A stretch of 64,000 nucleotides of DNA from a bacterium BMS3Bbin03 (GTDB lineage: Bacteria; Zhuqueibacterota; JdFR-76; BMS3Abin05): the NCBI GenBank assembly GCA_002898015.1, contig BDTM01000035.1, positions 42,401-106,400 on the forward strand, given 5' to 3'. The notes beneath the pieces are model-generated. The model saw nothing but the letters and a program-made list of their open reading frames with translations. It searched no databases and was not told the origin of the DNA. This document shows, one piece after another, positions 25,345-62,376 of this stretch; positions within the stretch are counted from its first letter, which is position 1; each line of letters starts with the position of its first letter. The position numbers and the translations under genes are program-made.

Positions 25345-25412
25345 AAATTAATTAGGAATTAGGAATTAGGAATTAGGAATTAGGAATTAGGAATTAGGAA
25401 TTAGGAATTAGG
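25345..25412. repeat. Perfect 7-bp tandem repeat (AATTAGG) x9, a simple-sequence repeat
   Basis: Nine identical heptamers, read directly from the sequence. They end 9 nt before the GGGAGGG Shine-Dalgarno site of the acetyltransferase gene, in the divergent intergenic region. Confidence 0.95.
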
Positions 25413-25421
25413 GAGGGTGTT

Positions 25422-35407: not shown

Positions 35408-37542
35408 AGAAAAATTTTTGGGTTGCATTTTTAAGTTTGATATTGGTTTTAGCGCTGTCGTTGACGGTAATGGCGAATAACAAAAGATATGCGGTCATTC
35501 GTCCGGGTGTCCCGGGTCAGCAGAGCGATGTCATTTTTATGACCCCGAGTGAGTTGAATTCACCCAATGTGGTGCAAATTATTCAAAAGCGGTTTGCAAA
35601 ACTGAGTGCCTCCGAGGGCATTATTGATACGTTAAAACATACATTTAGCGGCGTCAACTTCGGTTTTGCAGATGGCGATACAATGGCTGCTTTCTTTCGT
35701 CCGCCTGCCGGCTGTATTGTGAAATCCGTTATCATGACCTTTCAGAAATGGGGCGGTCAATTAACATCAGCCATTAATCTCTCAATTTATGGGTCCAATT
35801 ACCATGCCACTGAAATTCCGGATAGTCTTTTATATGGTAATTTCAGTCCCATCAATCTGGGATGGTGGACTGCAAGTGGAAATTGGGCACCACAGGTGCC
35901 TTATAGCTTCTATCCTTTAGGTGACCTTCTCTGGGGCGATTTTCCCATCAGTCTGGATCCGTCGAAAGATTCCCAAACCATTGATACACCGATGATTTAT
36001 CTGGGTTTCGAACCGGATGTGAAGCGGAATGACTTCATGATTGTGGCGCGCCCGGTGCAGGGAAGCGGCCAGTCGACCACCGGTATTTCGGCAGGCGCTG
36101 CCAACGGTGATCCCATGTTTGTGGGCTTCAAATGCTATCATGCCGGTCGTCTCGGTGAAACAACCACACCCTCCTGGTGGATTCGCGAATATGCCTGGAC
36201 AGTATGGGTCGTGGTTGAATTTTATGAAAATACCCCACCGAGTATTGATATTACAAAGATGTCCAATACGTTTTCCGCCGGACCATTTACGGCAAAAGCC
36301 ATGATAAAAGATCTTGATGCACATGATGCGACTCAGGCCGGCGTGGCGGAAGCCTATTTGCATTACAGCACGAATGGTGCGGCATGGGATTCTGTGGCCA
36401 TGAGCGGTCCGGCATCCGGAGGTGAATTCTCTGCCGTGATTCCGGCGGTGACAGCCCCGACATTTGTGTATTATTATATAACGGCAAAAGACCCACCCGG
36501 ACTTTATACCACAACAGCGGCGGCGCCCAAGAAATTCTATGTCGGCATTAAAACCGGTTCAAACATTCTGCTGTTCAACCAGGGCGGCGGATACGCTTCC
36601 GTATTTGATTCTGTTTATATAAACGATCTGGATGCGCTTGGGTATAAATATGACTATATGTTTGGCAGTGTCGACGAGACCGTAAAAGCGGAAAACTACA
36701 AATACGTCATCGTTCCCGCAAACGGCAATCCTATGCCGTCTTTATCCGATAGTCTGGGTTTAAACAAATTTGTAACGCTGTTGGATAATGGCGGAAATCT
36801 ATTGGTCAGCTCTGACGAAGCATTCGGATACTATACCTATGGTTGGCCGGGAGATACCCTGGCAACACCGGGCGGTTTCTTCCATGATTATCTTCATGTG
36901 AAAGAAGAATTCAGCGATGCCCCCTACGACAAGATCATGGATGTGCCGGGCGACGGTTTTGCAGACGCCTTAACCGATACGATTAAATTAACATTTCCGT
37001 CTGGTGTAGAAAACTATAGTGATGCCGTTTTGCCTACGGCAGATGGCTCCATGTTGTTTACGGTTACGCCGGATACATTTGCCAGCAAAACCGGCGGAAC
37101 TGTTAATGGTGCAGGTATTCTGTACAACGGAAATTATAAGGTTGTCTACTTGCCGTTTATTCTTGCAACATTAAACCAAAATGATCGCCAGACCATTATG
37201 AAGAGTGCGTTGGATTTCTTCGGTGCTACGAGCGATGTGTCGGAAGAAAATACGAATTCTCCGTACACGTACACATTACATCAGAATTACCCGAACCCAT
37301 TCAATCCGACGACGAATATCTCCTACAGCGTGGCGAAAGCGGGACAGGTGAATGTGGCTGTTTTCAATGTGATCGGCGAAAAAATTGCCGAGCTTGTAAA
37401 CGGTTATAAAACTGCCGGTTCTTATGGCGTGACGTGGAACGGAAAAGATAATGCCGGGCAGAATGTGGCCAGTGGTGTGTATTTCTACAGGATCAAAGCC
37501 GGTAATTTTACAATGACTAAAAAAATGGTTTTAATGCGGTAA
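35404..37542 (+). CDS. Secreted protein of unknown function with a T9SS C-terminal sorting domain
   Basis: 712 aa with a signal peptide. The C-terminus is NYPNPFNPTTNISYSV...VAVFNVIGEKIAELVNGYKTAGSYGVTWNGKDNAGQNVASGVYFYRIKAGNFTMTKKMVLMR, a canonical Por_Secre_tail. Confidence 0.7.
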   Translation: MKKNFWVAFLSLILVLALSLTVMANNKRYAVIRPGVPGQQSDVIFMTPSELNSPNVVQIIQKRFAKLSASEGIIDTLKHTFSGVNFGFADGDTMAAFFRPPAGCIVKSVIMTFQKWGGQLTSAINLSIYGSNYHATEIPDSLLYGNFSPINLGWWTASGNWAPQVPYSFYPLGDLLWGDFPISLDPSKDSQTIDTPMIYLGFEPDVKRNDFMIVARPVQGSGQSTTGISAGAANGDPMFVGFKCYHAGRLGETTTPSWWIREYAWTVWVVVEFYENTPPSIDITKMSNTFSAGPFTAKAMIKDLDAHDATQAGVAEAYLHYSTNGAAWDSVAMSGPASGGEFSAVIPAVTAPTFVYYYITAKDPPGLYTTTAAAPKKFYVGIKTGSNILLFNQGGGYASVFDSVYINDLDALGYKYDYMFGSVDETVKAENYKYVIVPANGNPMPSLSDSLGLNKFVTLLDNGGNLLVSSDEAFGYYTYGWPGDTLATPGGFFHDYLHVKEEFSDAPYDKIMDVPGDGFADALTDTIKLTFPSGVENYSDAVLPTADGSMLFTVTPDTFASKTGGTVNGAGILYNGNYKVVYLPFILATLNQNDRQTIMKSALDFFGATSDVSEENTNSPYTYTLHQNYPNPFNPTTNISYSVAKAGQVNVAVFNVIGEKIAELVNGYKTAGSYGVTWNGKDNAGQNVASGVYFYRIKAGNFTMTKKMVLMR

Positions 37543-37584
37543 TTTAGACTTCATAAGAAGAAAATTGCATGTGTTTAACGAATG

Positions 37585-40800: not shown

Positions 40801-41639
40801 ATCGATCTTTGTTAAAAAACAGAGCCGTGTCTCAAAAATATCGTTTTCTTGTGGGATTGGACAACTTTGAACGGGGGTTATCCGGCTGGGTTGTTAACCC
40901 GCCCGGGTGGGGGCTGGACAATACGAATGCGCACTCCGGGGAATTTTCCATAAACGACAGTCCGGGTAAAAATTACGGTTTGAATGAAGTCACCATCATC
41001 CAAACGGATTTTGGATTCGATTTTTCCAGGGCCAAAAAAGCAATGCTGAGCCTGTGGACGAAATATTATCTTGAATTTGGTCATGATTTTGGTTATATTG
41101 AGGTTAGTCCGGATGGTGGGTCCACATGGAAACAATTGGGTGAAAAAATCGGCGGTGTTTCAACCCGGTGGAAAGAAATCACGCGTTCACTCACGCCTTA
41201 CACCGGAGCCGGTTTCGATCAGGTCAAACTGAGATTTCGAATGGTTTCGGACAATCATCAGGGTCCCCCCTTTATGGGCTGGTATATCGATGACGTTCAA
41301 GTCATAGAAGGTAAAGATCTAACAAGCGTCGCGTCAAACTCAAATGAAAATACGATCCCTAAAAGCTGGGAAGTATCTCAAAATTATCCAAATCCTTTTA
41401 ATCCTGAAACTCGAATTTCTATCCGGGTGCCCGGAAAACAGCTCGTAAGAATCGATGTCTATAATAGTATTGGGCAGCATGTGATCACCCTTGTCAAAAA
41501 AGTTTTACCTGCGGGGAATTATCAGTTTAATTGGAAAGGTGTGAACCCAAAAGGGGAAGAAATGCCGTCCGGACTCTATTTTTTAAGGGTCAGAGGTAAA
41601 AAATTTACAAAAATTCAAAAAATGGTTCTCATGCGCTAA
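37824..41639 (+). CDS. Subtilisin-like serine peptidase (S8) with large accessory domains and a T9SS C-terminal sorting domain
   Basis: 1271 aa. The catalytic triad is in context: Asp in VIAIVDCGVDYKHEDL, His in HGTHVAGLAA, Ser in GSSMSAPVAAGVVALV. The C-terminal CTD is NYPNPFNPETRISIRV...GLYFLRVRGKKFTKIQKMVLMR. Confidence 0.8.
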   Translation: MKRMRRTIYFLLVMGIVFSSAILKAERPVKSQKYLFDGRGYVQPHKVLLKVKTFASLRMKGITFYKPASITGLASVDRVLEKFEVKSVKKYLQHKPIPAGIPDDIDRIYEARYASDAPPWEVAKELAKDPNLAYAEPVPVFFLEDTPNDPMYSQQAHLPQIHAPEAWGVQKGDSSVVIAIVDCGVDYKHEDLAANSWINEKEKNGLPGVDDDGNGYVDDIYGWDFGENDPNPINPPPDPLGYYAHGTHVAGLAAAVTNNGVGVSGSSWNCRYMAVKAAKDDDPRSITNGYQGITYAADNGADVINLSWGGGGYYQAGQDVVEYAYNKGSLVVASAGNDPNDKVHYPSGYRYALSVGVVDSHDRKPAWGTWGLSVDVMAPGVQDLSTLPGNKYGRMSGSSMSAPVAAGVVALVKARHPTWSVQRIMKQVAFTADNIDAENPGVEGLLGGGRIDAYRAVTETNPTPSPPKIKLISTKISDSDYGNGNGVFEQGETITIEPKFHNYSMGTGTNVQFSLNTGDDSSIVLIAKSSTVSFVDEESVFGLPEKFSFLIKQNAQSHMTRFFIGYTTSEGFTRADSFDVLIGKTPVLIVDDDDGQNNVQGFYISSLKTLGVNYGIWTHVTMGTPSSSYLSSFPIVIWSCEWAFPSLDSSDRAVLQKYLDGGGNLFISGQDIGWDLVDPTSDDHNASSEQFFKDYLHAEYDADNANDKRVRGVFGDPIGNGLNFEINQPGRDITNQYPDVLSPLPGAFPVWQYEINGGYGGVRFAGDYRVVYFGFGFEAIDAPTAITQAGEYSKNRVTVMRRVLDYLNPIQMTPLKDSENMEITFPVNAILKGDTVDLKGMVLYWKFKDDSVFRAVPMSRQDRLFKATIPAAHRTTHIDYYLEVENQYYKWSAPPGAPRNYYQFFVGPDTIPPVIVHENLPDMFNGEKPYSVHVKVTDNISLDMNSVFVHYKVRSVEDSLQLSPGAETGLFKGSIPPVAAYGDTLVYWFTAKDRSLLKNRAVSQKYRFLVGLDNFERGLSGWVVNPPGWGLDNTNAHSGEFSINDSPGKNYGLNEVTIIQTDFGFDFSRAKKAMLSLWTKYYLEFGHDFGYIEVSPDGGSTWKQLGEKIGGVSTRWKEITRSLTPYTGAGFDQVKLRFRMVSDNHQGPPFMGWYIDDVQVIEGKDLTSVASNSNENTIPKSWEVSQNYPNPFNPETRISIRVPGKQLVRIDVYNSIGQHVITLVKKVLPAGNYQFNWKGVNPKGEEMPSGLYFLRVRGKKFTKIQKMVLMR

Positions 41640-41656
41640 TACCGAAAAAGGAGGTG

Positions 41657-41806: not shown

Positions 41807-44800
41807 ATGAGTAAAAGGTTGTTTTTATTTGCCACTGCGGTCATGTTGGCTGTATTTGGTGTGTTTGCGGTTTATGCTTCGAATAGTCCCCAAAAGTCGG
41901 TTGTGACAAGCAAGGTTAAAACCGTTCAGAAAAAGAAATTTCAAATGATTCGTTCTAACGGAACTGAAGCGGCCACGGCTGCCACACCATTATTCTTCGA
42001 TGATTTTGAAGGCACTAATCCCACATGGTGGCCCGATGCAAGCTGGAACAACACGGGTGATCCCGATCCCAATACCGGGCGCCAGTTTTCGAGAAAATCG
42101 ACGTGGGAATACACCGACTCATCGTATAGCAGCCCCACGCATAGCTGGCATAATTTGGTCAATGCCAATCAGGATCTGGACTTCTTGTTCTCACCTGTGT
42201 TTCACGTACCGGATTCGGTGACGATTGACGGGATTACCAGTGTACTAAAGGGCGGCTTTATCCAGTTTATGGCCAAAAAAGGCGGCAAAGGCATACTGAA
42301 TGTTTTTGTGAGCGCAGCCACTCCCCTTTGGGAAGTTGTATCCGATGATCCTCACAGCGGAGCCAATAATTATAATATGACTCAACCCAGTAACCCGATG
42401 CTGCATCAGTGGTTAATTTCTCCGAAAATTGATTTAACCGGAAAAACGGCGCCCAAACTGGATTTCTGGCACAATTATATTTCCGAAGACAAGTGGGATT
42501 ATCTGGCTGTAGATGTGTCTACCGACAGTTTTGCCACTTATACGAATCTGGCGTATTATACGGGCGAACAGGATGCCTATACAGAAGTAAATCTGGATTT
42601 GTCGGCTTTCGCCGGCGAGCAAATCTGGTTCCGTTTCCGCTACGTAGCCGATTATGGAGCAACAGCAGATAACGCGCATTGGGATGTGGATGACATTCTG
42701 GTTGCCGATGGCACCGATACGGTATTCTTTTCCGGTGCAGAAACTGAACCTGACCCCTTTACAAAGGCCGGGTTCATGGGCGGTACATCTGTTGCGGCAT
42801 TTAATACCGAACAGGATTGGGGCCTTGTCGATTTGGGTAATGTCCTTCTGAAAGGCGTTAAACCGGGTGTGGATGCGCGTTTGGCGTTTCAATGGACTAC
42901 TTCAGGAGACACCACGTTAACCGGCGCAGGCATCTATGTGGATGATGTCTCCGTTATTCCAATGGGAATGCAGCATGTCGATTTAGAAGCTGTTGGCGCC
43001 GCCGGCTTAAACAACGCTGCCCTTGGCAGACCGCTTAATGCAAAAGTTGTGGTTGCCAATGCGGGTCTCGATACGTTAAGCGGCCGTATTTCATGGCTGG
43101 CAAAAGTCTTTAAAAATGTAACTCCCGACAGCAGTGCTCTTGTCGGCAATATGGTTGGTTTTCAGCAAGTCAGTGGTTTCACTCCCGATTCAGTTATCTA
43201 TATTCCAACGCTGCAAAACACACGTTGGGTTCCAAAAGAACCGGGTGATTACACATTGGATGTGGATGTCATTTTCAATGGTGACACTTACATGTCCAAT
43301 AATAATGTGAAGGTAGATTTCACCGTACTCGGGCCTCCTTTTGCCATTCCGGTCTATCGTGAAGATTTCGAGCCCAGAGCCGGCCAGACGTCCTTAGCAG
43401 ATTTCGGGTGGACGGTTGACAATGGCGGCGGCGGTTCACACACTTGGGTTTATGATACCTGGATATATGGCTGGGGTCCGGTCATATCAGGATATTTTTA
43501 CGATTGGACGGCTGATTCTGCCAGTGCGGCACAGGCATTAGATGAAACGCTGACCAGTCCTGAAATTGACATTTCTAAGGTCAATTCGCATAATGTCCTG
43601 TTTTTGAACTGTTATATCTATTTCCGGCCCGGCCACGCCGGTCTGGGAGCCCCCTGGGGTGCGCAACCCAGCGATATGACGATTCAATATTCCGTAGACG
43701 GCGGCGCCTGGCAGCAAGCATTCTACTGGGCTGATAACGATACACTGCCCGGAGATTACAATCGTTGGCCGCAGACCCGGTTGGGTGTGCCGTATTATCA
43801 CAAAACCGACATGGTGCTTCCCGGAGCAGCCGGTGGAAAAACACTCCAGATCCGCGTCAACTTCACTTCTACGAACTCGTATCTCTTTGGCATCAACTTC
43901 GATGAGGTCATCATTTACCAGGGTCTGATTAATCCATTGTTAGGCAAGGTGAAAGATGTGCCCAACGATAATGGTAAACAAGTCCGCTTGAATTGGATGA
44001 GATCCTGGAACGATCTGATGACCGCTAAGGGTGAAGGTTTGCAGAATCCGGTGACGCATTACAATGTCTGGAGAGGCTTTGGAATCCCGGGCGCGGGAGA
44101 AGCCAGACATGTGACTTCAACGGAAGCCATGCTGCGTGGTGCTGCCGGCATGAAAATTGGTGACAAAGTCATCGTCGATGACAACAACATGCTGTGGGAA
44201 CTGGTGGGCTCTGTTCCGGCAATGGGATGGAAATTCTATTCCTACGTCGCTCCGACCCTTGAGGATTCTGTCAGCACCTCATTCATGGTTTCTGCTCATC
44301 TGACCAATCCGATGGTATTCGATTACTCAAATATCAGTGCAGGCATATCCATCGATAATCTGGCGCCGCACATACCGGGTGGACTGACGGGTGGTCAGGT
44401 AGATTCCCATGTAAAAATCGTCTGGCAGCCGGTAACCGATAATGACCTGATGTTCTATACGGTTTATCGCAGCCAGGGAAATGGTAATTTGGTGCGATTG
44501 ACAAGAACAACGAGCACCTCTTATGTAGATGCGAATGTCACTCTGGAGAAGACTTATCATTATGCCATTACCGCCACCGATTTTGGGTGGAATGAGAGTC
44601 AAAAATCGGAAAAACTGTCGGTTTCCGTGACCAGTGTGAATGAAAAAGTTTCTAATGCAATCCCGACGGATTACGCATTGAATCAAAATTATCCGAATCC
44701 ATTCAATCCGACCACGGAAATTCGCTACGCGATTCCAAAGAGTGCAAATGTGACCATTTCAATTTATAACGTATTTGGTCAGAAAGTACGCACGCTGGTA

Positions 44801-44944
44801 ACCGGATACAAGTCTGCCGGCTATTATGTGGCAAACTGGAATGGCCGTTCCGATAATGGTCGCGAAGTCTCTTCCGGTATTTATTTCTATGAAATTCATG
44901 CCGGTACATTTACGGCCACAAAGAAGATGACTTTAATGCGGTAA
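41807..44944 (+). CDS. Secreted protein with an FN3 domain and a T9SS C-terminal sorting domain
   Basis: There is a GGAGGG site 6 nt before ATG 41807, and a signal peptide. The FN3-like module is VKIVWQPVTDNDLMFYTVYRSQGNGNLVRLTRTTSTSYVD. The C-terminal CTD is NYPNPFNPTTEIRYAI...GIYFYEIHAGTFTATKKMTLMR. Confidence 0.65.
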   Translation: MSKRLFLFATAVMLAVFGVFAVYASNSPQKSVVTSKVKTVQKKKFQMIRSNGTEAATAATPLFFDDFEGTNPTWWPDASWNNTGDPDPNTGRQFSRKSTWEYTDSSYSSPTHSWHNLVNANQDLDFLFSPVFHVPDSVTIDGITSVLKGGFIQFMAKKGGKGILNVFVSAATPLWEVVSDDPHSGANNYNMTQPSNPMLHQWLISPKIDLTGKTAPKLDFWHNYISEDKWDYLAVDVSTDSFATYTNLAYYTGEQDAYTEVNLDLSAFAGEQIWFRFRYVADYGATADNAHWDVDDILVADGTDTVFFSGAETEPDPFTKAGFMGGTSVAAFNTEQDWGLVDLGNVLLKGVKPGVDARLAFQWTTSGDTTLTGAGIYVDDVSVIPMGMQHVDLEAVGAAGLNNAALGRPLNAKVVVANAGLDTLSGRISWLAKVFKNVTPDSSALVGNMVGFQQVSGFTPDSVIYIPTLQNTRWVPKEPGDYTLDVDVIFNGDTYMSNNNVKVDFTVLGPPFAIPVYREDFEPRAGQTSLADFGWTVDNGGGGSHTWVYDTWIYGWGPVISGYFYDWTADSASAAQALDETLTSPEIDISKVNSHNVLFLNCYIYFRPGHAGLGAPWGAQPSDMTIQYSVDGGAWQQAFYWADNDTLPGDYNRWPQTRLGVPYYHKTDMVLPGAAGGKTLQIRVNFTSTNSYLFGINFDEVIIYQGLINPLLGKVKDVPNDNGKQVRLNWMRSWNDLMTAKGEGLQNPVTHYNVWRGFGIPGAGEARHVTSTEAMLRGAAGMKIGDKVIVDDNNMLWELVGSVPAMGWKFYSYVAPTLEDSVSTSFMVSAHLTNPMVFDYSNISAGISIDNLAPHIPGGLTGGQVDSHVKIVWQPVTDNDLMFYTVYRSQGNGNLVRLTRTTSTSYVDANVTLEKTYHYAITATDFGWNESQKSEKLSVSVTSVNEKVSNAIPTDYALNQNYPNPFNPTTEIRYAIPKSANVTISIYNVFGQKVRTLVTGYKSAGYYVANWNGRSDNGREVSSGIYFYEIHAGTFTATKKMTLMR

Positions 44945-44962
44945 TTTGTTCCTGTTCAAAAA

Positions 44963-54153: not shown

Positions 54154-54837
54154 TTGAAAGATAGACGATTATTGTTTGCCGAGCTGTCGAAACGGTTGAA
54201 AGATTATTTTGGCGAACCGGAGCGGCCGGATGGCCTAAATCCTCTTGACGTGCTTATTGAGACCATTTTGTCCCAGAATACAAACGATCGCAACCGGGAT
54301 ATTGCCTTTAAACAATTAAAACAGCACTTTCCAACCTGGGAGGAGACGGAAAAAGCCCCTGCTGAATCCGTCGAAGAAGCCATTCGTCCCGCCGGCCTGG
54401 CGAGACAGAAGGCGCCGCGGATTCAACATATTATTAAATGGATCGAAAATGAATATGGAACACTCGATATTGGTTTTATCTGTGATTGGGATATTGATGA
54501 GGTGATTCAGACGTTTACTCAGCTTAAAGGCATCGGCATCAAAACGATTAGTGTCGTTTTGATGTTCGCCTGCGGAAAAAATGTATTTCCGGTTGATACG
54601 CATATTCACAGGATCTCGAAACGGCTGGGACTGATTTCAGAAAAAACATCTGCCGAGAAGGCCCATTCGATTCTTGGCGATTGGGTGCCGCCGGAGGAAG
54701 CCTATTCCGTTCACATCAATTTGCTCAGGCTGGGACGAACAATTTGCCTGGCCAGAAAACCGAAATGTGATAAATGTCCCGTTTGGGATTTGTGCGATTA
54801 CGGCCGTCAACATAAAGACCAGGGAAATCCGCGCTGA
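54154..54837 (+). CDS. Endonuclease III-like HhH-GPD base-excision glycosylase with a [4Fe-4S] cluster loop
   Basis: TTG start with an AGGAG site 8 nt upstream. The helix-hairpin-helix motif is LKGIGIKTISVVL, the GPD Asp is present, and the C-terminal CxxxxxxCxxCxxxxxC loop is CLARKPKCDKCPVWDLC. Confidence 0.8.
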   Translation: MKDRRLLFAELSKRLKDYFGEPERPDGLNPLDVLIETILSQNTNDRNRDIAFKQLKQHFPTWEETEKAPAESVEEAIRPAGLARQKAPRIQHIIKWIENEYGTLDIGFICDWDIDEVIQTFTQLKGIGIKTISVVLMFACGKNVFPVDTHIHRISKRLGLISEKTSAEKAHSILGDWVPPEEAYSVHINLLRLGRTICLARKPKCDKCPVWDLCDYGRQHKDQGNPR

Positions 54838-54951
54838 AAAAGGGGATTTGGATTTTTATTTCTCAATATTTACGAAAAAACATACAAGATGGAGATGACA
54901 GTTAAGTAGTGCTACGTCTGCCTCTGTTTGTGCCATATGACCGCCGGCGGA

Positions 54952-55002
54952 CGGGAATTGAAAACACACACGCCTCTCCGCCGGAGACAATTGGCATCAA
55001 CC
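54952..55002 (-). repeat. Copy 1 of the extragenic repeat family (GGTTGAYGCCAAT-N4-C-N-GGCGG module plus adjacent CGGGAATTGAAAACACACAC module)
   Basis: The reverse complement GGTTGATGCCAATTGTCTCCGGCGGAGAG aligns with copies at 59851 and 61448. The adjacent CGGGAATTGAAAACACACACGCCTC aligns with 59873-59900. Confidence 0.7.
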
Positions 55003-55041
55003 GAATGGCCAATTTCATCCATTTGCTAGAAATCACATATC

Positions 55042-55326
55042 GTCCTTACAGGACTTCAAATCATTGGATTTGGCACTTCGCTATAAACATACCGTCCCTA
55101 CGGGACTTTCAAGAGATTTGACAAACAAATATGACTTACAACCGAATACGGCAGTATAATGTTTTTCATGTAAAATTAGATTTGTTGCTTTTTCGAATCT
55201 CTGACATGATAGAGCCACTTTATTGAAAAGATATTGTCTTTGATGCTATTTCCATTTTTTATGTCCCGTTAGGGACAAAATGTTTATAGAAGATTAATAA
55301 ACACACGATTAAAGTCCCGTAGGGAC
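55042..55326. repeat. Four copies of a 13-14 bp palindrome GTCC(C/T)(G)TA(C/G)(A/G)GGAC, arranged as two pairs 47-52 bp apart
   Basis: gtccttacaggac (55042-55054), gtccctacgggac (55094-55106), gtcccgttagggac (55263-55276), gtcccgtagggac (55314-55326). A fifth copy, atccctacgggat, lies at 59619-59631. Confidence 0.8.
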
Positions 55327-55736
55327 GAAATGTAATTGCCATTATAAATCGTTGAACTCTTAAGTTAACGGCTATGGTTTGCGGCGGAGAGCTCCGCCTG
55401 TGACTATCGCCGTCAACCCAAGCTGAAGCTCTCCGCCGCAGGCGGATTGTCGTGAACTTCAGCTCGCGGATCACAATCCATCTCCTGTTTTCCGGTGTTT
55501 TAACCCCCAAGGATCGAATGAATCGGGGTTAAAACCCCCTTTAGATTTGCTTTTTATTCGGTATCCACGCTCTAAAGAGCGTGGCAAGTCAAATAAATCA
55601 ATCAGATTTTCACAATATTGTTTTGGGTTGACTATTATGGCCGCCGGCAGATGGGAAAATATTGAAATAGGCTTAAAATAATCATATATTTTAATGAAAA
55701 TTTTGTCTAATTTTAAATTAGGAAAGGTTTTGATTT

Positions 55737-57269
55737 ATGGCCGCTCGAAAATTGCGTTATTTGAAATATATTATTTTTATTTTAGTGGGTGTGATCGTTG
55801 GTGTCTCTTTGACGCTTCGATTGGACCTCACCAATTCCAGCAAGGCGAACGAATTTAAGCCGGCCCTGAAACCGGACTTTCGTTTTGAAGAACCGGCCGC
55901 TAAACCTCCGGCCAACTCCATTGCCCTGAAAAATCTTCAAAATGCTTTTATTGAAATATCGCAGGCGGTAAAGCCGTCTGTTGTGAATATCAACATCACA
56001 AAAAGTGTTTCAATGAAAGACTTGGGGAAGTTCCATGGAAAAAACAAAGATTTTTGGGAATTTTTTAACAAGAAATTTTTTCGCAAGAATCCGCCGAAAC
56101 AATTTCGTCAGGGATATTCGGGATCGGGTATTATTATCGCCAGAGACGGGTACATCTTGACGAATACACACGTGGTTGAAGATGCCGATGAAATCGAAGT
56201 GACGCTTTACGACAAACGCACGTATCCGGCGCAAATTGTCGGACTGGATCCGCTGACTGAAATTGCCGTGGTTAAGATTAAAGCCGACAGCCTGAAGCCG
56301 GCCAGTCTCGGCAATTCCGATAACGTGCAGGTGGGGCAGTGGGTACTCGCTTTTGGGAATCCATTGGAATTAAAATTTACGGTTACCGCCGGCATCGTCA
56401 GTGCGTTGGGACGGCAGATGCGAATTATTCAGGATAATTTCGGAATTGAAAATTTTATTCAAACGGACGCCGTGATTAATCCCGGGAACAGCGGCGGGGC
56501 GCTCGTGAATTTGAACGGACGCGTGATTGGAATCAATACCGCTATTGCGTCAAAAAGCGGTTTTTATGAAGGATATGGATTTGCGATTCCCATCAATCTG
56601 GCAAAAGTCATTGCCCGGGATCTGATCACAACGGGTAAAGTCATTCGTGCCTACCTTGGCATTGCCATGAGTACAGTGGACGAGCTGCGGGCAAAAGCCT
56701 ACGGATTGAAACAGCCGGTGGGCGTTTATGTGGACAATATTTTAGGGGACGGGCCTGCGGGCAAGTCCGGTGTGCGGGAAGAAGACATTATCCTGGCCAT
56801 TAATGGGAAAAAAGTAAATTCTCCCAATCAGATCCAAAATTACGTCGCACTCCATCGTCCGGGTGATAAGGTGACACTTAAACTATATCGGGATCACAAG
56901 ATTCTGAAAATTCCGGTGACTCTGGGTGAGCGGGAAACATCTGTACCCCTTGTCCAGAATGCTCGGAAAAACAAGGAAACCGAAAAACAAAGTTTGGGAT
57001 TGACCGTCCGGAACATGACGAAAAAGGATCGAAAAGAACTCCGGATAAAGCAGAAAAAAGGGGTCATTGTGGATTCGGTCGAGCCGTTCAGCAAAGCGTT
57101 CGATGCCCGGTTTCGTCCGGGATACTTGATTCTGGAAGCAAACCATCAACCGCTGAAAACGAAAAGGAACTTTGAGAAAATTCTCAAGAAGGCAAAGTCC
57201 GGAGATGTCGTTATTTTTCTCGTTCAGGGCGGAAACCAGACGACGCACCTTTTTCTTGAGATTCCCTAA
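55737..57269 (+). CDS. htrA: HtrA/DegP-family periplasmic serine endoprotease (S1C) with PDZ domains
   Basis: There is a signal anchor. The catalytic His is in ILTNTHVV, Asp follows, and the catalytic Ser is in GNSGGALVNLNGRVIGINTAI. Two PDZ-like domains follow. Confidence 0.85.
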   Translation: MAARKLRYLKYIIFILVGVIVGVSLTLRLDLTNSSKANEFKPALKPDFRFEEPAAKPPANSIALKNLQNAFIEISQAVKPSVVNINITKSVSMKDLGKFHGKNKDFWEFFNKKFFRKNPPKQFRQGYSGSGIIIARDGYILTNTHVVEDADEIEVTLYDKRTYPAQIVGLDPLTEIAVVKIKADSLKPASLGNSDNVQVGQWVLAFGNPLELKFTVTAGIVSALGRQMRIIQDNFGIENFIQTDAVINPGNSGGALVNLNGRVIGINTAIASKSGFYEGYGFAIPINLAKVIARDLITTGKVIRAYLGIAMSTVDELRAKAYGLKQPVGVYVDNILGDGPAGKSGVREEDIILAINGKKVNSPNQIQNYVALHRPGDKVTLKLYRDHKILKIPVTLGERETSVPLVQNARKNKETEKQSLGLTVRNMTKKDRKELRIKQKKGVIVDSVEPFSKAFDARFRPGYLILEANHQPLKTKRNFEKILKKAKSGDVVIFLVQGGNQTTHLFLEIP

Positions 57270-57288
57270 TCGGAAGGAATTTGGATTG

Positions 57289-57489
57289 AACTATTTTGAA
57301 AGAATACGATTGAAAGATCGATTTGCGATTCGCGGGACAATCTTCATTGTACTGGGGACAATTGGGCTGTTAGTTGAATTGCTTTTTCGGACCCGGCCGC
57401 AGATTTTTGTCATTCTTTTGTACGGCGGGTTGATCGGTGTGTCGCTGTTGATCATTTTTACCATTACCGACCCGCAGCTTCGTGAATAG
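57289..57489 (+). CDS. Small two-helix membrane protein (about 66 aa); speculative
   Basis: TTG start 9 nt after GGAAGG. It has two hydrophobic helices (IFIVLGTIGLLVELLF and IFVILLYGGLIGVSLLIIFTI). Its stop overlaps the GTG start of the downstream peptidase by 8 nt. Confidence 0.3.
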   Translation, partial: NYFERIRLKDRFAIRGTIFIVLGTIGLLVELLFRTRPQIFVILLYGGLIGVSLLIIFTITDPQLRE

Positions 57490-59494
57490 AAAATTTACAA
57501 TCCTTTTATCGCTTATTTTACTGCTTTGCTGGAAGCAGCCCTTTTTATTTGCTCAGGGGCTTATTTCTGTTTCTTCCCTTGAAAAACCAGTCCGTTCTGC
57601 AAGCCCGGCTATTCCCGGCAATCGCCCTGACGATCGGGCGGGGCGGGGAATTAATATATTAAAATACAGTGTTTATTTGGAACCGTCGTTTCTCACGAAA
57701 TCTCTTTACGGGAAATGCACACTCACTTTTGAAATAACAGATGCCATTCCCGACAGTACGGTTCGTTTAAATCTGGTGAATCTCAAGGTCGATTCCGTGA
57801 CCTCCGGAGATCGATCGTGGGCGTTTTTTCAGAAGGATAGTCTGCTGTTTTTGCAATCGCCAACCGGATTTCAAATCGGAGATACGGTTTCTGTGACGAT
57901 TGTTTATCAAGGCTACCCGACAAACGATTCATTCGGCGGATATTTTGCGACAAAGCGCATTATTTACACGGTGGGTGAGGGCCTGTACACGCAGCCGCCG
58001 TCCATGACGCGCCGGTGGATTCCTTCCGTAGACAGGCCCGATGCTAAGGCACTGCTCAAAATGACGGTCAGGGTTCCGTCCGGAAACATTGTGGGCTCCA
58101 ACGGGCTGCTGGTTAAAGTCATTCACAATTCCGATCAAACCGATGCATTCGTCTGGCAGGAAGATTTTCCGATTGCGCCCTATCTGATGTCCATCGGTAT
58201 CTCAAAGTTTGCACGATTCAACCAGGTTTATGTGAATGCTTCGGGCGATACGCTGCCGATTCAGAATTTTGTTTATCCTGAAGACAGCCTAAAAGCCGTT
58301 GAAGATTTTAAAAATTTACCGGACATGATCCGCTTCTTCTCACAAAAATTTGGACCGTACCCCTTTAAAAAATACGGCATGCTGGAAGCCCCTATGGGAG
58401 GGGCGATGGAGCACCAAACCCTTACCACTCTGAGTAGTTTTCTGATCACAGGCGACCGGCGTTACGAAGGCATCATTGCCCATGAACTGGGACATCAGTG
58501 GTGGGGGGATTGCGTCACGCTGGCCGATTGGGGGGACATCTGGCTCAATGAGGGATTTGCCACCTATTCCGATGCGCTGTACACCGAGCACGCTTACGGT
58601 GAGAAGGCATTTCGCGCCAAGATGGATGGCTTTGCCGCACTTTATTTTCGTGAAGATGACACGGTGGGCCGGTTTCCGATTTATGATCCTCAAAAAATGT
58701 GGGGCGCCACGGTTTATGAAAAAGGGGCCTGGGTGCTGCACATGCTGCGCGGCGTTGTGGGCGATTCCGTTTTTTTTGAGATTATGCGGTCTTACCGGTC
58801 ATCTTTTGAGTACGGCAACGCCACCATCGCAGATTTTCAGCAGGCGGCGGAATCCGTTTCCGGGGAAGATCTGGATTGGTTTTTTCACGAATGGCTTTTT
58901 GAAGCGGGCTATCCGATTTATCAGTTTCGGTGGCAGGCGAAACCCGCCAATCCGGGTGGAACCGAAGTTGTTCTGAACATTCGGCAAATTCAAACCAAGG
59001 CGCCGCTCTTCCGAATGCCGATCCAGTTCGGATTTGATTTTGAAGACACGACTTTTATCAAAACGATCCATGTGAATCAGGATGAGCAAAATTTTCACTT
59101 CACCTTCAATGGAGCTCCCAGTCGAGTTGTTTTTGATCCCAATCAATTTGTACTGAAGAAGCTGTACAATCTTTCCACACTCTATCCGCCGGAGGAATTT
59201 CGGCTCCTGCAAAGTTACCCGAATCCGTTTTATGCGGGTGAATCCTCACAAAAAATAATAATCGTTTTCTGGACGCGCTCAAAATACAGCCAATATTATG
59301 TTCAATTAAAGATTTACAATTCACTGGGGCAAATCGAGCGAATCCTCGTGGACGGAAAAATCCCTCCCGGTTACCACGAACGCACCTGGCGTGCCTGGTC
59401 CGACGAAGGCCGTCCTGTACCTGCCGGCGTCTATTTTTGTGTGTTGACCCAGGGAAACGAAACACAAACCCGTAAAATTGTGGTCGTCCGTTAA
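57482..59494 (+). CDS. M1-family zinc metallopeptidase (aminopeptidase N-like) with a T9SS C-terminal sorting domain
   Basis: It has a signal peptide. The GAMEH exopeptidase motif is present. The zinc site is HELGHQWWGD...WLNEGFATY (HExxH-x18-E). The C-terminal CTD is SYPNPFYAGE...GVYFCVLTQGNETQTRKIVVVR. Confidence 0.8.
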   Translation: MNRKFTILLSLILLLCWKQPFLFAQGLISVSSLEKPVRSASPAIPGNRPDDRAGRGINILKYSVYLEPSFLTKSLYGKCTLTFEITDAIPDSTVRLNLVNLKVDSVTSGDRSWAFFQKDSLLFLQSPTGFQIGDTVSVTIVYQGYPTNDSFGGYFATKRIIYTVGEGLYTQPPSMTRRWIPSVDRPDAKALLKMTVRVPSGNIVGSNGLLVKVIHNSDQTDAFVWQEDFPIAPYLMSIGISKFARFNQVYVNASGDTLPIQNFVYPEDSLKAVEDFKNLPDMIRFFSQKFGPYPFKKYGMLEAPMGGAMEHQTLTTLSSFLITGDRRYEGIIAHELGHQWWGDCVTLADWGDIWLNEGFATYSDALYTEHAYGEKAFRAKMDGFAALYFREDDTVGRFPIYDPQKMWGATVYEKGAWVLHMLRGVVGDSVFFEIMRSYRSSFEYGNATIADFQQAAESVSGEDLDWFFHEWLFEAGYPIYQFRWQAKPANPGGTEVVLNIRQIQTKAPLFRMPIQFGFDFEDTTFIKTIHVNQDEQNFHFTFNGAPSRVVFDPNQFVLKKLYNLSTLYPPEEFRLLQSYPNPFYAGESSQKIIIVFWTRSKYSQYYVQLKIYNSLGQIERILVDGKIPPGYHERTWRAWSDEGRPVPAGVYFCVLTQGNETQTRKIVVVR

Positions 59495-59546
59495 CAATGA
59501 TCCTTTGATGACCCTTTTAATTTTTGGCACCCAGCCGAAGTCCCTT

Positions 59547-59573
59547 CCCGCCGCAGGCCATTGGCGTCAACTT
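59547..59573 (-). repeat. Copy 2 of the extragenic repeat family
   Basis: The reverse complement AAGTTGACGCCAATGGCCTGCGGCGGG starts 53 nt after the peptidase stop codon. Confidence 0.7.
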
Positions 59574-59850
59574 AAATTTGTAATTTGGCGGAATTTTCCT
59601 AAAAACAAAAAACATATCATCCCTACGGGATTTGAAGCGATTTTGGTATCATTGTACTACAAACATTTCGCCCCGCTGGGGCTGTGTTGTAACTCGTTAT
59701 TTATGAATAGCTTGATACCGACCCAATGAAAGCGCCGTTAGGTACGACATGTTATTTTTGTTTTCTGAAGAGCAAGATTAGCCAGGAATACTATAAAATG
59801 CGAAGCAATTATTTATAAATACTGCGTTTACAAAACTCTAAATAGCAATT

Positions 59851-59900
59851 AGGTTGACGCCAATAGCCGCAGGCGGGCGGGAATTGAACACACACCCCTC
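59851..59900 (+). repeat. Copy 3 of the extragenic repeat family (both modules)
   Basis: AGGTTGACGCCAATAGCCGCAGGCGGGCGGGAATTGAACACACACCCCTC is present. Together with copy 2 it forms inverted copies about 300 bp apart. Confidence 0.7.
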
Positions 59901-60227
59901 TTGGCCGAAGGGAAAGCTCTCCGCCCTTAGCAGAGAAACTTCACCGCACAGGTAATAGCCGTCAGCTTAAGCTCGCGGAACACAATCCATTCACTATGAA
60001 AACGTGGTGAATCTTTCTTATTACGCTTGTTTTGTTTTGTCTGTGATGTAACAATTTCTTGCCGGTTTATAAATTTCTTTTCCAGAATATCTAATGAATA
60101 AAAAATTGTGGTTCCTTTTCCCATTCTTCTATTTATCCCTTGATAATGGCGGGAGAATTATTTAATTTAAAAAAATCAAAATGCGTTTCGATTCTGTTAA
60201 AATCTTTTTCACTTATTGGAGTAACTG

Positions 60228-61274
60228 ATGAAAGTATTCTCTGTTCGCTGGATTTTACCGGGATTGCTGCTCATTTCCGGAGGCTGGGGGTGTTCCCAAA
60301 ACAAAGGAGCTAAAGTGGATCATTTATTTCGGGATTACCAGGGTAACCGGCCCGGTGCGGCTGTGATGATCATCAAAGATGGTCATCCCCTTCTGACCAA
60401 AACCTACGGCATGGCCAATCTTGAGAAAAAAATTCCGGTGAGCCCCGCCGCCAATTTTCGTCTGGCCTCCGTAACCAAACAGTTTACGGCCATGAGTATC
60501 CTTATGCTGGTGGAGCGGGGCCGGTTGAGACTTTCCACCACATTGGGTGAGCTTTTTCCGGATTTTCCGGCATACGGCCGAACCATCACGATTGATCAAT
60601 TGCTGCACCACACCTCCGGGCTTCTGGCCTACGAGGACATCATCCCGGACACCGTCAAAAAGCAGGTTAGGGACAGGGATGTGCTGGCGCTCATGATGCG
60701 GCAGGACAGCACCTACTTTCCGTCCGGCACGGCCTACCGCTACAGTAACACCGGCTACGCTGTTCTGGCAATGGTGATTGAAAAGGTTTCAGGCTTGTCC
60801 TATGCGGATTTTGTGCGTCAAAATATTTTTGAGCCTCTGGGAATGACCCAAACCGTGGCTTACGAAAAGGGCATTTCGACGGTGCCCGATCGCGCGTTCG
60901 GATACACAGTGGAAGGCGATTCCATTGCCTTGACGGATCAGAGCACCTACAGCGCCGTATTGGGTGACGGCGGCATTTATTCCTCCATTAACGATTTGTT
61001 CAAATGGGATCAGGCACTCTACGGGAACAGACTTCTTTCCTTTCAAACACAGAATTACGCCTTCACGCCGCAACTGGAGCACTACGGCTGCGGCTGGCGG
61101 ATTGACCGGTACAAGGGGCACCGGCGGATTCATCACACGGGCAGCACCATGGGATTCCGAAACGTCATTCAGCGCTTCCCGGACGATCATTTCACCGTGA
61201 TTATTTTGACCAACCGAAAAGCCCCCGGTGTGGCTCCCCTGGCAGAAAAACTTGTGGACTGGTACCTGCTGTAA
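60228..61274 (+). CDS. Serine hydrolase of the beta-lactamase (class C / PBP-like) family, lipoprotein
   Basis: The lipobox is GGWGC. The SxxK motif is in ASVTKQF, a YSN-like motif is in YRYSNTGY, and HTG stands in for the KTG motif. Confidence 0.7.
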   Translation: MKVFSVRWILPGLLLISGGWGCSQNKGAKVDHLFRDYQGNRPGAAVMIIKDGHPLLTKTYGMANLEKKIPVSPAANFRLASVTKQFTAMSILMLVERGRLRLSTTLGELFPDFPAYGRTITIDQLLHHTSGLLAYEDIIPDTVKKQVRDRDVLALMMRQDSTYFPSGTAYRYSNTGYAVLAMVIEKVSGLSYADFVRQNIFEPLGMTQTVAYEKGISTVPDRAFGYTVEGDSIALTDQSTYSAVLGDGGIYSSINDLFKWDQALYGNRLLSFQTQNYAFTPQLEHYGCGWRIDRYKGHRRIHHTGSTMGFRNVIQRFPDDHFTVIILTNRKAPGVAPLAEKLVDWYLL

Positions 61275-61447
61275 AGCAGGGGGGTGAGCCGCCGAGGTAA
61301 CGGAGATTTGTCTTCGCGATGAACCAAATTTTAATTTACCGGTTCTTATTTTTACCATTAACTTTATTTTAATCCTCCAATCCTTTTAATTCCATAATCC
61401 TGTCCAAATATTTAAAAAATGATAAACAAGATATTCTATCGGATCCA

Positions 61448-61480
61448 GAGGTTGACGCCAATTATCTCAGGCGGATAGGG
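61448..61480 (+). repeat. Copy 4 of the extragenic repeat family
   Basis: GAGGTTGACGCCAATTATCTCAGGCGGATAGGG lies in the convergent intergenic region. Confidence 0.7.
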
Positions 61481-61491
61481 GCGTGTTCTCT

Positions 61492-62376
61492 TTATTGGCG
61501 GCGATATGCCAGACGGAGGCCCTCTTCCACAGTCAAAAGCGGGGTGGTTAGAATGGATTTGGCAAGAGAAATATTCAGAGAGACATCCTGAGGCCGCTGG
61601 GCAGAAGGATTTGGATCAAACATGGATTTCCGAATGAGCAAATCGTCCGAAACCCCCAGGATATTGGCCAAGATTTTTCCAAATGAGTAGCGATCGATTC
61701 TCTGAGATCCTCCAAGGTGCAGGATTCCCCTGAATTCGGAAGAAGCCAGCTCCAAAAGGGCATTGACCAGGTTTTCGACCCAGATGGGTGTGCGAAATTG
61801 ATCGGCGAACAGGGGTGTGGGTTGTTTTTTCTCCCAGGATTGCCGGAGCCACTCTGAAAAGGAATATCGATGGAGCGGCGATTTTCCATACAGGATGGCG
61901 ATCCGCAGGACAACCGCATTCAAACAGGTTTCCAACACGACCCGCTCGGCGGCCGCTTTTGTTCTGGCATAATGGCTGAGCGGATTGACCGGATCTTCTT
62001 CTGAATAATTCCCTTTTTTGCCGTCAAAAACCAGATCGGTTGAAATGTAAATGAACCGGCTTCCAATCTTTTGGGCCTTTTCCGCCAGGAATTTTGTGGC
62101 CTCAACATTCAGTAAACGACAGGCGGAAGGATCGGCTTCACACACATCGACTTGTGTTTGTGCCGCCGTGTGGATGATGACATCCGGGCGGAAATTCTTG
62201 AAAAGGGCCTCGACATCCGGCCCGGAAGTCAGGTCCGCTCGCAAAAGCCTTGAATGCGCCGGATTTTGAGCAGCATGGGCAAAATGGAGGGCTGTTGTTT
62301 CCCACGTTTCGGCGGCTTTCCGGAGAAGCACACTTCCCAGAAAGCCCGAAGCGCCCGTAATAAGGATTTTTTTCAT
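61492..62376 (-). CDS. NAD(P)-dependent reductase, dTDP-4-dehydrorhamnose reductase (RmlD)-like
   Basis: The start was set at the internal Met MKKILITGASGFLGS (GxxGxxG motif). The catalytic YxxxK is YARTK. The size, about 294 aa, is typical of RmlD. The upstream 55 codons of the longer ORF look non-coding. Confidence 0.65.
   Translation of the reverse strand: MKKILITGASGFLGSVLLRKAAETWETTALHFAHAAQNPAHSRLLRADLTSGPDVEALFKNFRPDVIIHTAAQTQVDVCEADPSACRLLNVEATKFLAEKAQKIGSRFIYISTDLVFDGKKGNYSEEDPVNPLSHYARTKAAAERVVLETCLNAVVLRIAILYGKSPLHRYSFSEWLRQSWEKKQPTPLFADQFRTPIWVENLVNALLELASSEFRGILHLGGSQRIDRYSFGKILANILGVSDDLLIRKSMFDPNPSAQRPQDVSLNISLAKSILTTPLLTVEEGLRLAYRRQ

Follow-up and report, generated by a model that had tools for sequence, protein, structure and literature searches.

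In the 64,000-nucleotide stretch of DNA analysed here (the window), a short motif recurs on both sides of the htrA-pepN genes, and the question is what kind of element it belongs to. The conserved 12-13 nucleotides were found to be the tip of a terminal inverted repeat, CATTGGCGTCAACTTAA (the element end is also written CATTGGCGTCAAC). By its sequence, this tip very probably belongs to an IS4-family DDE transposon that comes closest to those of the IS231 subgroup. The element is ordinary mobile-DNA debris and is neither a new regulatory repeat nor a REP-like one.

We confirmed that the repeats are real. With at most one mismatch, GGTTGAYGCCAAT was observed four times in the window against 0.31 expected, and none of 100 shuffles reached four. 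The matches lie at 54990-55002(-), 59560-59572(-), 59852-59864(+) and 61450-61462(+), where an earlier note on this DNA had placed its four copies. At two mismatches the bare 13-mer loses significance (8 matches against 4.1 expected) and therefore weaker copies need context. A CCGCC-type flank combined with the 12-mer (up to two mismatches) gave six sites against 0.12 in shuffles, adding those at 55406-55417 and 55446-55457, while two further degenerate ends (55364-55375 and 59955-59966) were found by eye. The resulting six solid and two weaker copies all fall in three intergenic regions of the ~90 kb examined and, as had also been claimed, lie downstream of stop codons, at a distance of 65-180 nt. 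The remaining ~54 kb of the window lacks copies, and so does ~25 kb of additional sequence read from this species. A second module reported as common to two places is likewise present, with CGGGAATTGAANACACAC at 54952-54969 and 59878-59895, and 0 of 100 shuffles reached its observed count.

The copies at 59547 and 59851 form a 29-nt inverted repeat, 83% complementary and 273 nt apart, at the ends of an intact MITE. This element (copy 1) and its target site are composed as follows.

59559..59865, unstranded: copy 1, intact non-coding MITE of 307 bp (inverted repeat I5)
59559-59575: left inverted repeat of copy 1, CATTGGCGTCAACTTAA
59849-59865: right inverted repeat of copy 1, TTAGGTTGACGCCAATA
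59550..59558, unstranded: left target-site duplication, GCCGCAGGC, read directly
59866..59874, unstranded: right target-site duplication, GCCGCAGGC, built like the perfect duplications of 10 and 12 bp in six related loci (L162, L165, L178, L190, L198 and L206)
59547-59549 and 59875-59877: outer palindrome arms, CCC and GGG respectively
59612..59760: internal hairpin units (ACAT-N3-stem-loop-stem) at 59612-59631(+) and 59663-59682(+), and a degenerate unit at 59733-59760(-)
59878..59897, plus strand: module B, CGGGAATTGAACACACACCC, outside the region common to copies 1 and 2
54941..54971, plus strand: paralogue of the site into which copy 1 inserted, itself unoccupied, with palindrome CCGCCGGCGG(A) and then module B, CGGGAATTGAAAACACACAC

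In copy 1 the right tip carries A in place of the expected G, and the element folds via pairing of its termini (z -4.2). Its duplications are a perfect direct repeat (9/9), while an inverted comparison of the flanks is poor. The empty site was reconstructed as CCCGCC-GCA-GGCGGG, and the 9-bp duplication fits this odd-length 15-bp palindrome with cuts 3 nt from each end. Over 29 nt, the site at 54941-54971 shares 90% identity with 59867-59895, the stretch that holds the right duplication and module B. Module B at 59878-59897 is host flank beside an occupied target, outside the MITE. On the reverse strand, module B was noticed to be vaguely T-arm-like, without pairing.

A second copy of 359 bp (copy 2, locus L157) is located upstream of Sua5 in the same species. 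Copies 1 and 2 are identical from tip to tip except for two SNPs and a 52-bp indel, copy 2 carrying one extra 52-bp hairpin unit. Their identity stops exactly at the repeat tips and their flanks differ; the repeats flanking copy 2 match at only 7/9 positions. These are the two near-identical copies documented in the ~90 kb of this species that was read, and they lie at unrelated loci (pepN and Sua5). The earlier guess that the 59547/59851 pair is a MITE is therefore supported, as copy 1 is short and non-coding, has inverted-repeat ends with a 9-bp target duplication and occurs more than once.

Assemblies are disturbed at these elements. For example, the contig L001 leaves the window sequence at the motif and continues into the Sua5 locus, NODE_67 of a sister assembly departs from the window right after GGTTGACGCCAAT, and the contigs of GCA_002898095.1 break in intergenic region IG2. 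A site-specific breakpoint after the 13-mer in L001 was considered and rejected, since the divergence is the boundary of the second MITE copy: L001 is a hybrid with copy 1 on its left and copy 2 on its right. The MITE finding accounts for the contig breaks or mis-joins of three assemblies in IG2 and for one public pepN-Sua5 contig. Open reading frames across the MITE copies are repeat artefacts, and four predicted small ORFs are explained in this way.

The earlier note had read the clusters on both sides of the 4.5-kb segment as possible marks of a mobile or recombining htrA-pepN module. If the repeats were recombination sites or borders of such an exchangeable module, the switch in L001, the broken contigs of GCA_002898095.1 and the divergence of NODE_67 would also be explained. 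We consider this very unlikely, as the L001 switch follows from the MITE copy upstream of Sua5 and no recombinase is found nearby. Furthermore, htrA, a 67-aa ORF and pepN are kept together without these repeats in relatives with 57-62% PepN identity (related Calditrichota), which argues that the segment is not a mobile module. One relative (L213) also keeps the downstream SDR, 249-aa and DUF5683 genes, so the arrangement in the window is ancestral. The mRNA-stabilising role that had been suggested is neither needed nor indicated. In related species the corresponding loci carry none of these elements.

Remnants of three kinds are present in the window, namely the intact 307-bp MITE, one decayed MITE and four solo ends. 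Intergenic region IG1 contains the older decayed copy together with solo ends. The decayed copy and the solo ends are listed below.

54989..55376, unstranded: copy 3, an older decayed MITE of the same type (inverted repeat I25; flank plus 12-mer test)
54988-55001: left end of copy 3, (C)AATTGGCATCAAC
55364-55376: right end of copy 3, GTTAACGGCTATG
55035..55333: internal hairpin units of copy 3 at 55035-55054(+), 55087-55106(+), 55262-55283(-) and 55314-55333(-) (direct repeat D13)
55405..55417, plus strand: solo left-end fragment, (T)ATCGCCGTCAAC, with flank CTCCGCCTGTGAC, head to head against the right end of copy 3
55445..55481, plus strand: solo left end, ATTGTCGTGAAC, with subterminal 'D' module CTCGCGGATCACAATCCAT and flank CTCCGCCGCAGGCGG (direct repeat D16)
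59954..59990, plus strand: degenerate left end, (A)ATAGCCGTCAGC-TTAAG, with 'D' module, upstream of a beta-lactamase-family gene (D16)
61451..61463, plus strand: solo right end, GTTGACGCCAAT(T), between convergent genes, with target-type flank ATCTCAGGCGGATAGG at 61464-61479

Copy 3 is collinear with copy 1 (alignment A1), including the internal hairpin units, which were found nowhere else in the window. The direct repeat D16 joins the end at 55445-55481 with 59955-59990 at 83% of 36 nt, its core being identical at 20 of 21 positions. The flank at 61464-61479 resembles a palindrome in the pseudo-tRNA of L157. Target duplications were sought for copy 3 and the solo ends and none was recognisable.

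Transposase-bearing relatives with the same ends were found in other organisms. A first metagenome pattern (copy-specific left end plus 8 nt) gave no match. A genome-contig scan with GTTGAYGCCAAT-N8-GCGG was too loose, and the matches listed were mostly coding or due to chance, while about 11 non-coding ones among those listed led to a 1.8-kb Ginsengibacter contig (L069). A control scan of viral contigs returned 32 single chance matches. The Ginsengibacter contig carries a 403-aa ORF bounded by inverted CATTGGCGTCAACTTAA, which matches DDE_Tnp_1 in Pfam (2e-18) and the NCBIfam IS4 family transposase model (193.8 bits against a cutoff of 115) and contains the Y(2)R(3)E(6)K motif as YKVRWQIEIVFKSWK. 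The same ends were observed in all of its homologues at L158-L165 (48-61% identity), and the short contigs among these stop 2-5 nt outside CAT. A DDE transposase flanked by these ends is also found in L159, L162, L165, L169, L188, L192 and L209. Perfect target duplications are present in six loci, with 10 bp in L162, L178, L190, L198 and L206 and 12 bp in L165. A metagenome scan (46 loci) gave four full insertion sequences with transposase and at least ten MITE-sized pairs, and it is the source of the 10-bp duplications of L178, L190, L198 and L206. A PIN-toxin cassette is bounded by the same ends in L176. No cognate transposase turned up either in the window or in ~25 kb of further sequence read from this species.

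The proposed assignment to a known group draws on these ends. The IS231 subgroup has the end signature CAT-------AA--TAA--- with direct repeats of 10-12 bp, where 5'-CAT, AA at positions 11-12 and TAA at positions 15-17 are conserved (PMC2266710, Table 1), and CATTGGCGTCAACTTAA fits this signature at 8/8 conserved positions. An end of a Bacillus thuringiensis IS231A copy (pKK3), CATGCCCATCAACTTAAGAA, matches at 13/17 positions. The duplications are about one helical turn long, with 10 and 12 bp in the relatives and 9 bp in copy 1 compared with 10-12 bp in IS231. A single-ORF DDE/YREK transposase was found in the related loci, while the window holds none. The best plasmid matches of the L069 transposase are the Bacillus IS231 transposases (IS231A/C/O/R; 698/773 records, E down to 4e-31) at only 26-29% identity, so that the probable placement in the subgroup is drawn mainly from the ends and the duplication length.

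As in IS231 and the MIC231 cassettes, the ends begin with 5'-CAT and carry the signature, target specificity is marked, and non-autonomous derivatives share the ends, here as MITEs and the PIN-toxin cassette. The hosts differ, however, from the Bacillus cereus group in which IS231 occurs. IS231-type ends were described in 2008 as almost confined to that group and are now seen in hosts of FCB/PVC type (Bacteroidota, Verrucomicrobiota, KSB1, Ignavibacteriales and Calditrichota), where distant transposases accompany them. The MITEs themselves differ in nothing essential from other bacterial MITEs: they are small (307-388 bp), non-coding and intergenic, with terminal inverted repeats, duplication, internal hairpins and multiple copies, and their interior is a series of ACAT-hairpin repeats, more of them in some copies than in others. 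The family had been called novel; its kind is already known, but this particular element has no name in the literature searched, where string searches with the end sequences returned unrelated primer matches only.

The insertions carry 9-12 bp target duplications and are flanked on either side by one half of a GC-rich palindrome, (T/C)CC-CGC...GCG-GG(A). The consensus first proposed for the repeat ended in N4-C-N-GGCGG. It joins two different things, the inverted-repeat tip of the element, GTTGACGCCAAT, and the N-GGCGG tail, which would be target-site sequence outside the element, because the insertion scheme places a palindrome arm beyond the tips. The whole N4-C-N-GGCGG tail probably represents the duplicated target plus an arm of the palindromic target TCCCGC-N3-4-GCGGGA. 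We infer from the sequences that the elements have transposed. A transposase acting in trans would bind the ends and excise the element, which would be inserted by staggered cuts ~3 nt in from either end of the palindrome. As the duplication covers most of the palindrome, each insertion would leave two near-complete targets, and these leftover targets may favour new insertions beside old ones, giving the head-to-head nests in IG1 and IG2. The elements would lengthen the intergenic regions and cause breaks or confusion in assemblies, with nothing to suggest a further function.

A duplicated short symmetric target, with flanks that mimic an extended inverted repeat, is also characteristic of IS10, which targets GCTNAGC, and of IS1397 and ISKpn1, which target REP sequences. 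These belong to other families or subgroups and their target sequences differ from the present one. The target of IS231A differs as well from the CCCGC...GCGGG palindrome; it is reported to be preferentially GGG-N5-CCC (Hallet et al. 1994). The current understanding of transposition is unchanged by these elements, and their sharply defined palindromic target could serve for testing target-site selection.

Intergenic GC-rich clusters with alternating orientation and assembly disturbance are also seen with the REP/BIME elements of enterobacteria and pseudomonads, and the earlier note had likened the repeats to these. On that reading, a REP-associated tyrosine transposase would have spread the family, and its copies would stabilise mRNA or be bound by proteins. 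Head-to-head pairs do fold well (z -3.8 to -5.5; -4.2 for the pair at 55360-55422), and it is conceivable that the target palindromes are in themselves a host repeat. Single units, however, are not palindromes and fold no better than shuffles (z -0.22, -0.40 and -1.20 for single copies), no Rfam match was found, and copies are missing from the rest of the sequence searched. REPs are palindromes without duplication that are linked to RAYT tyrosine transposases. In the present case the repeated unit is the end of a transposon, and it is the target that is palindromic; target duplications are present and the copies end exactly where transposase-bearing insertion sequences end. We therefore regard a REP-like family as highly improbable.

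The strong local hairpins, and the tolerance of G-U pairs by the minus-strand version of some pairs, could also point to a conserved element around the protease genes, either a structured non-coding RNA or a cis-regulatory sequence. This is the least credible explanation, since the element is absent at orthologous loci and near-identical copies are found beside the unrelated genes pepN and Sua5. An Rfam search of the whole window at gathering score returned nothing, and an E-value search of 54800-61600 gave chance-level matches only (E <10). A tRNA scan of the window detected no tRNA.

Integron attC and dif-type sites were considered and dropped because of core mismatch and gene context. GTTGACG/CGTCAAC fits only 5/7 core positions of the attC consensus (RYYYAAC...GTTRRRY), the palindromic forms span 37-55 nt compared with 55-140 bp, and the flanking genes are conserved housekeeping genes.

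A bolder extension of the IS231-like assignment is that these ends may define an undescribed branch, widespread in FCB/PVC, with a strict, self-regenerating palindromic target that gives rise to nests, and that in this genome it may have taken up the beta-lactamase-family gene (59954-61463) in the form of a MIC231-like cassette, as it did with the PIN toxin module of L176. We hold this as speculative and rather unlikely. The ends around that gene are unequally decayed (three mismatches compared with none) and without duplication. They are inverted in the right orientation, and L213 and L214 lack the gene in the corresponding slot.

Four matches to GGTTGAYGCCAAT at no more than one mismatch were found in the window against 0.31 expected, and none of 100 shuffles reached four; every copy claimed by the earlier note is present. 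The bare 13-mer at two mismatches was not significant in the window; a CCGCC-type flank together with the 12-mer at up to two mismatches gave six sites there against 0.12 in shuffles.

Repeat ends and associated features in the window
54990-55002, minus strand, GGTTGAYGCCAAT with at most one mismatch (motif scan)
59560-59572, minus strand, GGTTGAYGCCAAT with at most one mismatch (motif scan)
59852-59864, plus strand, GGTTGAYGCCAAT with at most one mismatch (motif scan)
61450-61462, plus strand, GGTTGAYGCCAAT with at most one mismatch (motif scan)
55364-55375, degenerate end (by eye)
59955-59966, degenerate end (by eye)
54952 and 59878 (starts), module B (CGGGAATTGAANACACAC), at 59878 host flank beside the copy 1 target
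59559-59865, MITE copy 1, bounded by CATTGGCGTCAACTTAA and TTAGGTTGACGCCAATA
59550-59558 and 59866-59874, perfect direct repeat GCCGCAGGC flanking copy 1
54941-54971 (IG1), unoccupied paralogue of the copy 1 site with module B, 90% identical over 29 nt

The copies are restricted to three intergenic regions, IG1 (54838-55736), IG2 (59495-60227) and IG3 (61275-61491), among nth, htrA, an M1 peptidase gene with a T9SS tail, a beta-lactamase-family gene and an RmlD-like reductase gene, and none occurs in the remaining ~54 kb of the window. Rfam and ARAGORN searches gave no match.

A loose pattern scan of species-representative genomes returned mostly coding and chance matches. About 11 non-coding matches among those listed, from Bacteroidota, Verrucomicrobiota, KSB1 and Ignavibacteriales, have the longer form TTAA-GTTGACGCCAAT-GCGC-N4-GCGGG in common, and several lie at the end of a contig. 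On L069, a 1.8-kb Ginsengibacter contig, two inverted motif copies enclose a 403-aa ORF whose product, a DDE transposase (Pfam 2e-18) with the Y(2)R(3)E(6)K motif, scores as an IS4-family equivalog at 193.8 bits, above the cutoff of 115. Contigs of 1.4-2.5 kb carry most of its 962 homologues, a length that fits collapsed repeats. Four homologues (48-61% identity, at eight loci) lie without exception between CAT(T/A)(G/A)GCGTCAA(C/G)(T/C)TAA ends, the short contigs among them stopping 2-5 nt beyond CAT, and perfect duplications of 10 bp (L162) and 12 bp (L165) were observed, both flanked by TCC...GGA. The same ends flank IS4-family transposase genes, so the 13-mer belongs to a terminal inverted repeat, 5'-CATTGGCGTCAACTTAA, and forms its tip. 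The earlier consensus joins this tip to target-site DNA: its "N4-C-N-GGCGG" tail is read as the duplication plus one arm of a palindromic target.

Members of the IS231 subgroup have CAT-------AA--TAA--- ends, 10-12 bp direct repeats and the YREK signature; they are markedly target-specific and often carry passenger DNA (De Palmenaer et al., PMC2266710). The ends described here agree with that subgroup at 8/8 conserved positions and with IS231A of B. thuringiensis pKK3 (CATGCCCATCAACTTAAGAA) at 13/17. When the L069 transposase was compared with a plasmid collection, 698 of the 773 records were Bacillus IS231-family transposases, at 26-29% identity (E down to 4e-31). We file the element in the IS4 family, with IS231-like ends; at so low an identity the transposase may or may not belong to the IS231 subgroup. 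The end sequence has no occurrence in the searchable literature; the repeat is real and belongs to an ordinary class of mobile DNA of a kind already known.

The suggestion of a MITE was borne out by the inverted repeats, the perfect duplication and a second near-identical copy at another locus. The empty site rebuilt for copy 1 is the palindrome CCCGCC-GCA-GGCGGG. Copy 2 lies on L157 (same species, another sample) between tRNA-Pro/tRNA-Arg genes and Sua5; from tip to tip the two differ only by two substitutions and one additional hairpin unit of 52 bp (alignment A2), and similarity ends at the tips. In the related species L166 no element was found upstream of Sua5. Two partial tRNA-Arg 3' copies were noted downstream of tRNA-Pro and tRNA-Arg(TCT) (L157 ~850-990), in which the anticodon-stem position reads ATCCGCCTGAGGCGGAT, the MITE target palindrome; copy 2 is located in the second. 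The flank of the solo end in IG3 (61464-61480) resembles this palindrome region.

Alignment showed IG1 and IG2 to be collinear patchworks that run from a minus copy through at least two plus-strand ACAT-hairpin units and one or two minus-strand units to a plus copy, beyond which further copies lie head to head. Such units are found only between inverted copy pairs. The MITE interiors (55035-55333, 59612-59760) are built of ACAT-N3-GTCCC-TAC-GGGAC units, their number differing between copies by the 52-bp indel, and a MITE from Ignavibacteriales that shares these ends (L143 560-660) contains similar CTACAAGCAT-hairpin units. Only inverted pairs out-fold shuffles (z -3.8 to -5.5); single copies do not (z -0.2 to -1.2), which contradicts the proposed REP/BIME-like family. 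AttC sites, structured RNA and site-specific recombination sites were likewise each contradicted by a tested feature. Two further strong hairpins lie in IG1, GGTGTTTTAACCCCC...GGGGTTAAAACCCCC (55497-55545) and CCACGCTCTAAAGAGCGTGG (55562-55588). ORFs of 65-83 aa span the repeats (54909-55121, 55259-55510, 59478-59729, 59927-60124) and are probably artefacts of repeat sequence; three public assemblies annotate one of them as a gene.

Insertion would proceed by a transposase supplied in trans acting on the ends, with staggered cuts ~3 nt inside each end of a 15-16 bp palindrome giving 9-10 bp duplications. Since such a duplication takes in most of the palindrome, each insertion would have a near-complete target on either side; this would account both for the head-to-head junctions, such as 55364-55417 and a 37-nt palindrome of L001, and for the way copies nest in a few intergenic regions.

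A specific metagenome pattern, CCGCC-N7-ATTGGCGTCAAC-NTAA, recovered 46 loci, many of them ~100 nt from a contig end with the element continuing off it. Four are full insertion sequences (transposases 32-37% identical to that of L069) and at least ten are pairs of MITE size (149-477 bp) whose interiors are unrelated. L178, L190, L198 and L206 each show a perfect 10-bp duplication, CGC-N4-GCG, set between (T)CC and GG(A). The same inverted ends, with an 8/10 duplication, bound a 1.17-kb element (L176 2775-3944, also L179) that encodes a 79-aa ORF and a PIN-domain protein but no transposase, so it is a MIC-type cassette with a toxin-antitoxin-like passenger. MIC231 cassettes are mobilised in trans by IS231 (PMC6199540). 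The beta-lactamase-family gene of the window (59954-61463) is a weak candidate for such a cassette: its ends are correctly oriented and relatives lack the gene, but it has no duplication and the two ends have decayed unequally.

Peptidase homologues at 62% and 57% identity are on Calditrichota contigs, which retain the Zn-peptidase/htrA/67-aa ORF/pepN order; L213 has extra genes after htrA and also keeps the downstream reductase/249-aa/DUF5683 genes. No such ends or hairpin units were found in ~40 kb from these relatives. Synteny kept without the repeats argues that they are lineage-specific insertions that enlarged IG1 and IG2 and that htrA-pepN is vertically inherited, contrary to the mobile htrA-pepN module proposed before. 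The 67-aa ORF (~57286-57489), which overlaps the pepN start and whose position is conserved in L213 and L214, probably encodes a genuine small membrane protein.

A public 95.8-kb contig, L001 (ERZ1742237 NODE_67), agrees with the window as far as 59864 and from there runs into Sua5, joining it to pepN via a hybrid of two MITE copies. Comparison of L001 12049-12480, window 59530-59900 and L157 961-1392 showed the left flank and SNPs of copy 1 with the indel and right flank of copy 2. Ancestral-type synteny in L213 and an orphan right junction on NODE_982 favour a mis-join between two MITE copies that are ~99% identical, which is the probable reading; otherwise the junction would be a recombinant between them. 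Contigs of GCA_002898095.1 also end within IG2.

Elsewhere in the window, a tandem heptamer (AATTAGG, ~10 copies) was observed at 25350-25419, and three large ORFs have similar 3' ends (37270-37545, 41378-41642 and 44672-44947; 68-79% identity) that encode T9SS C-terminal sorting domains.
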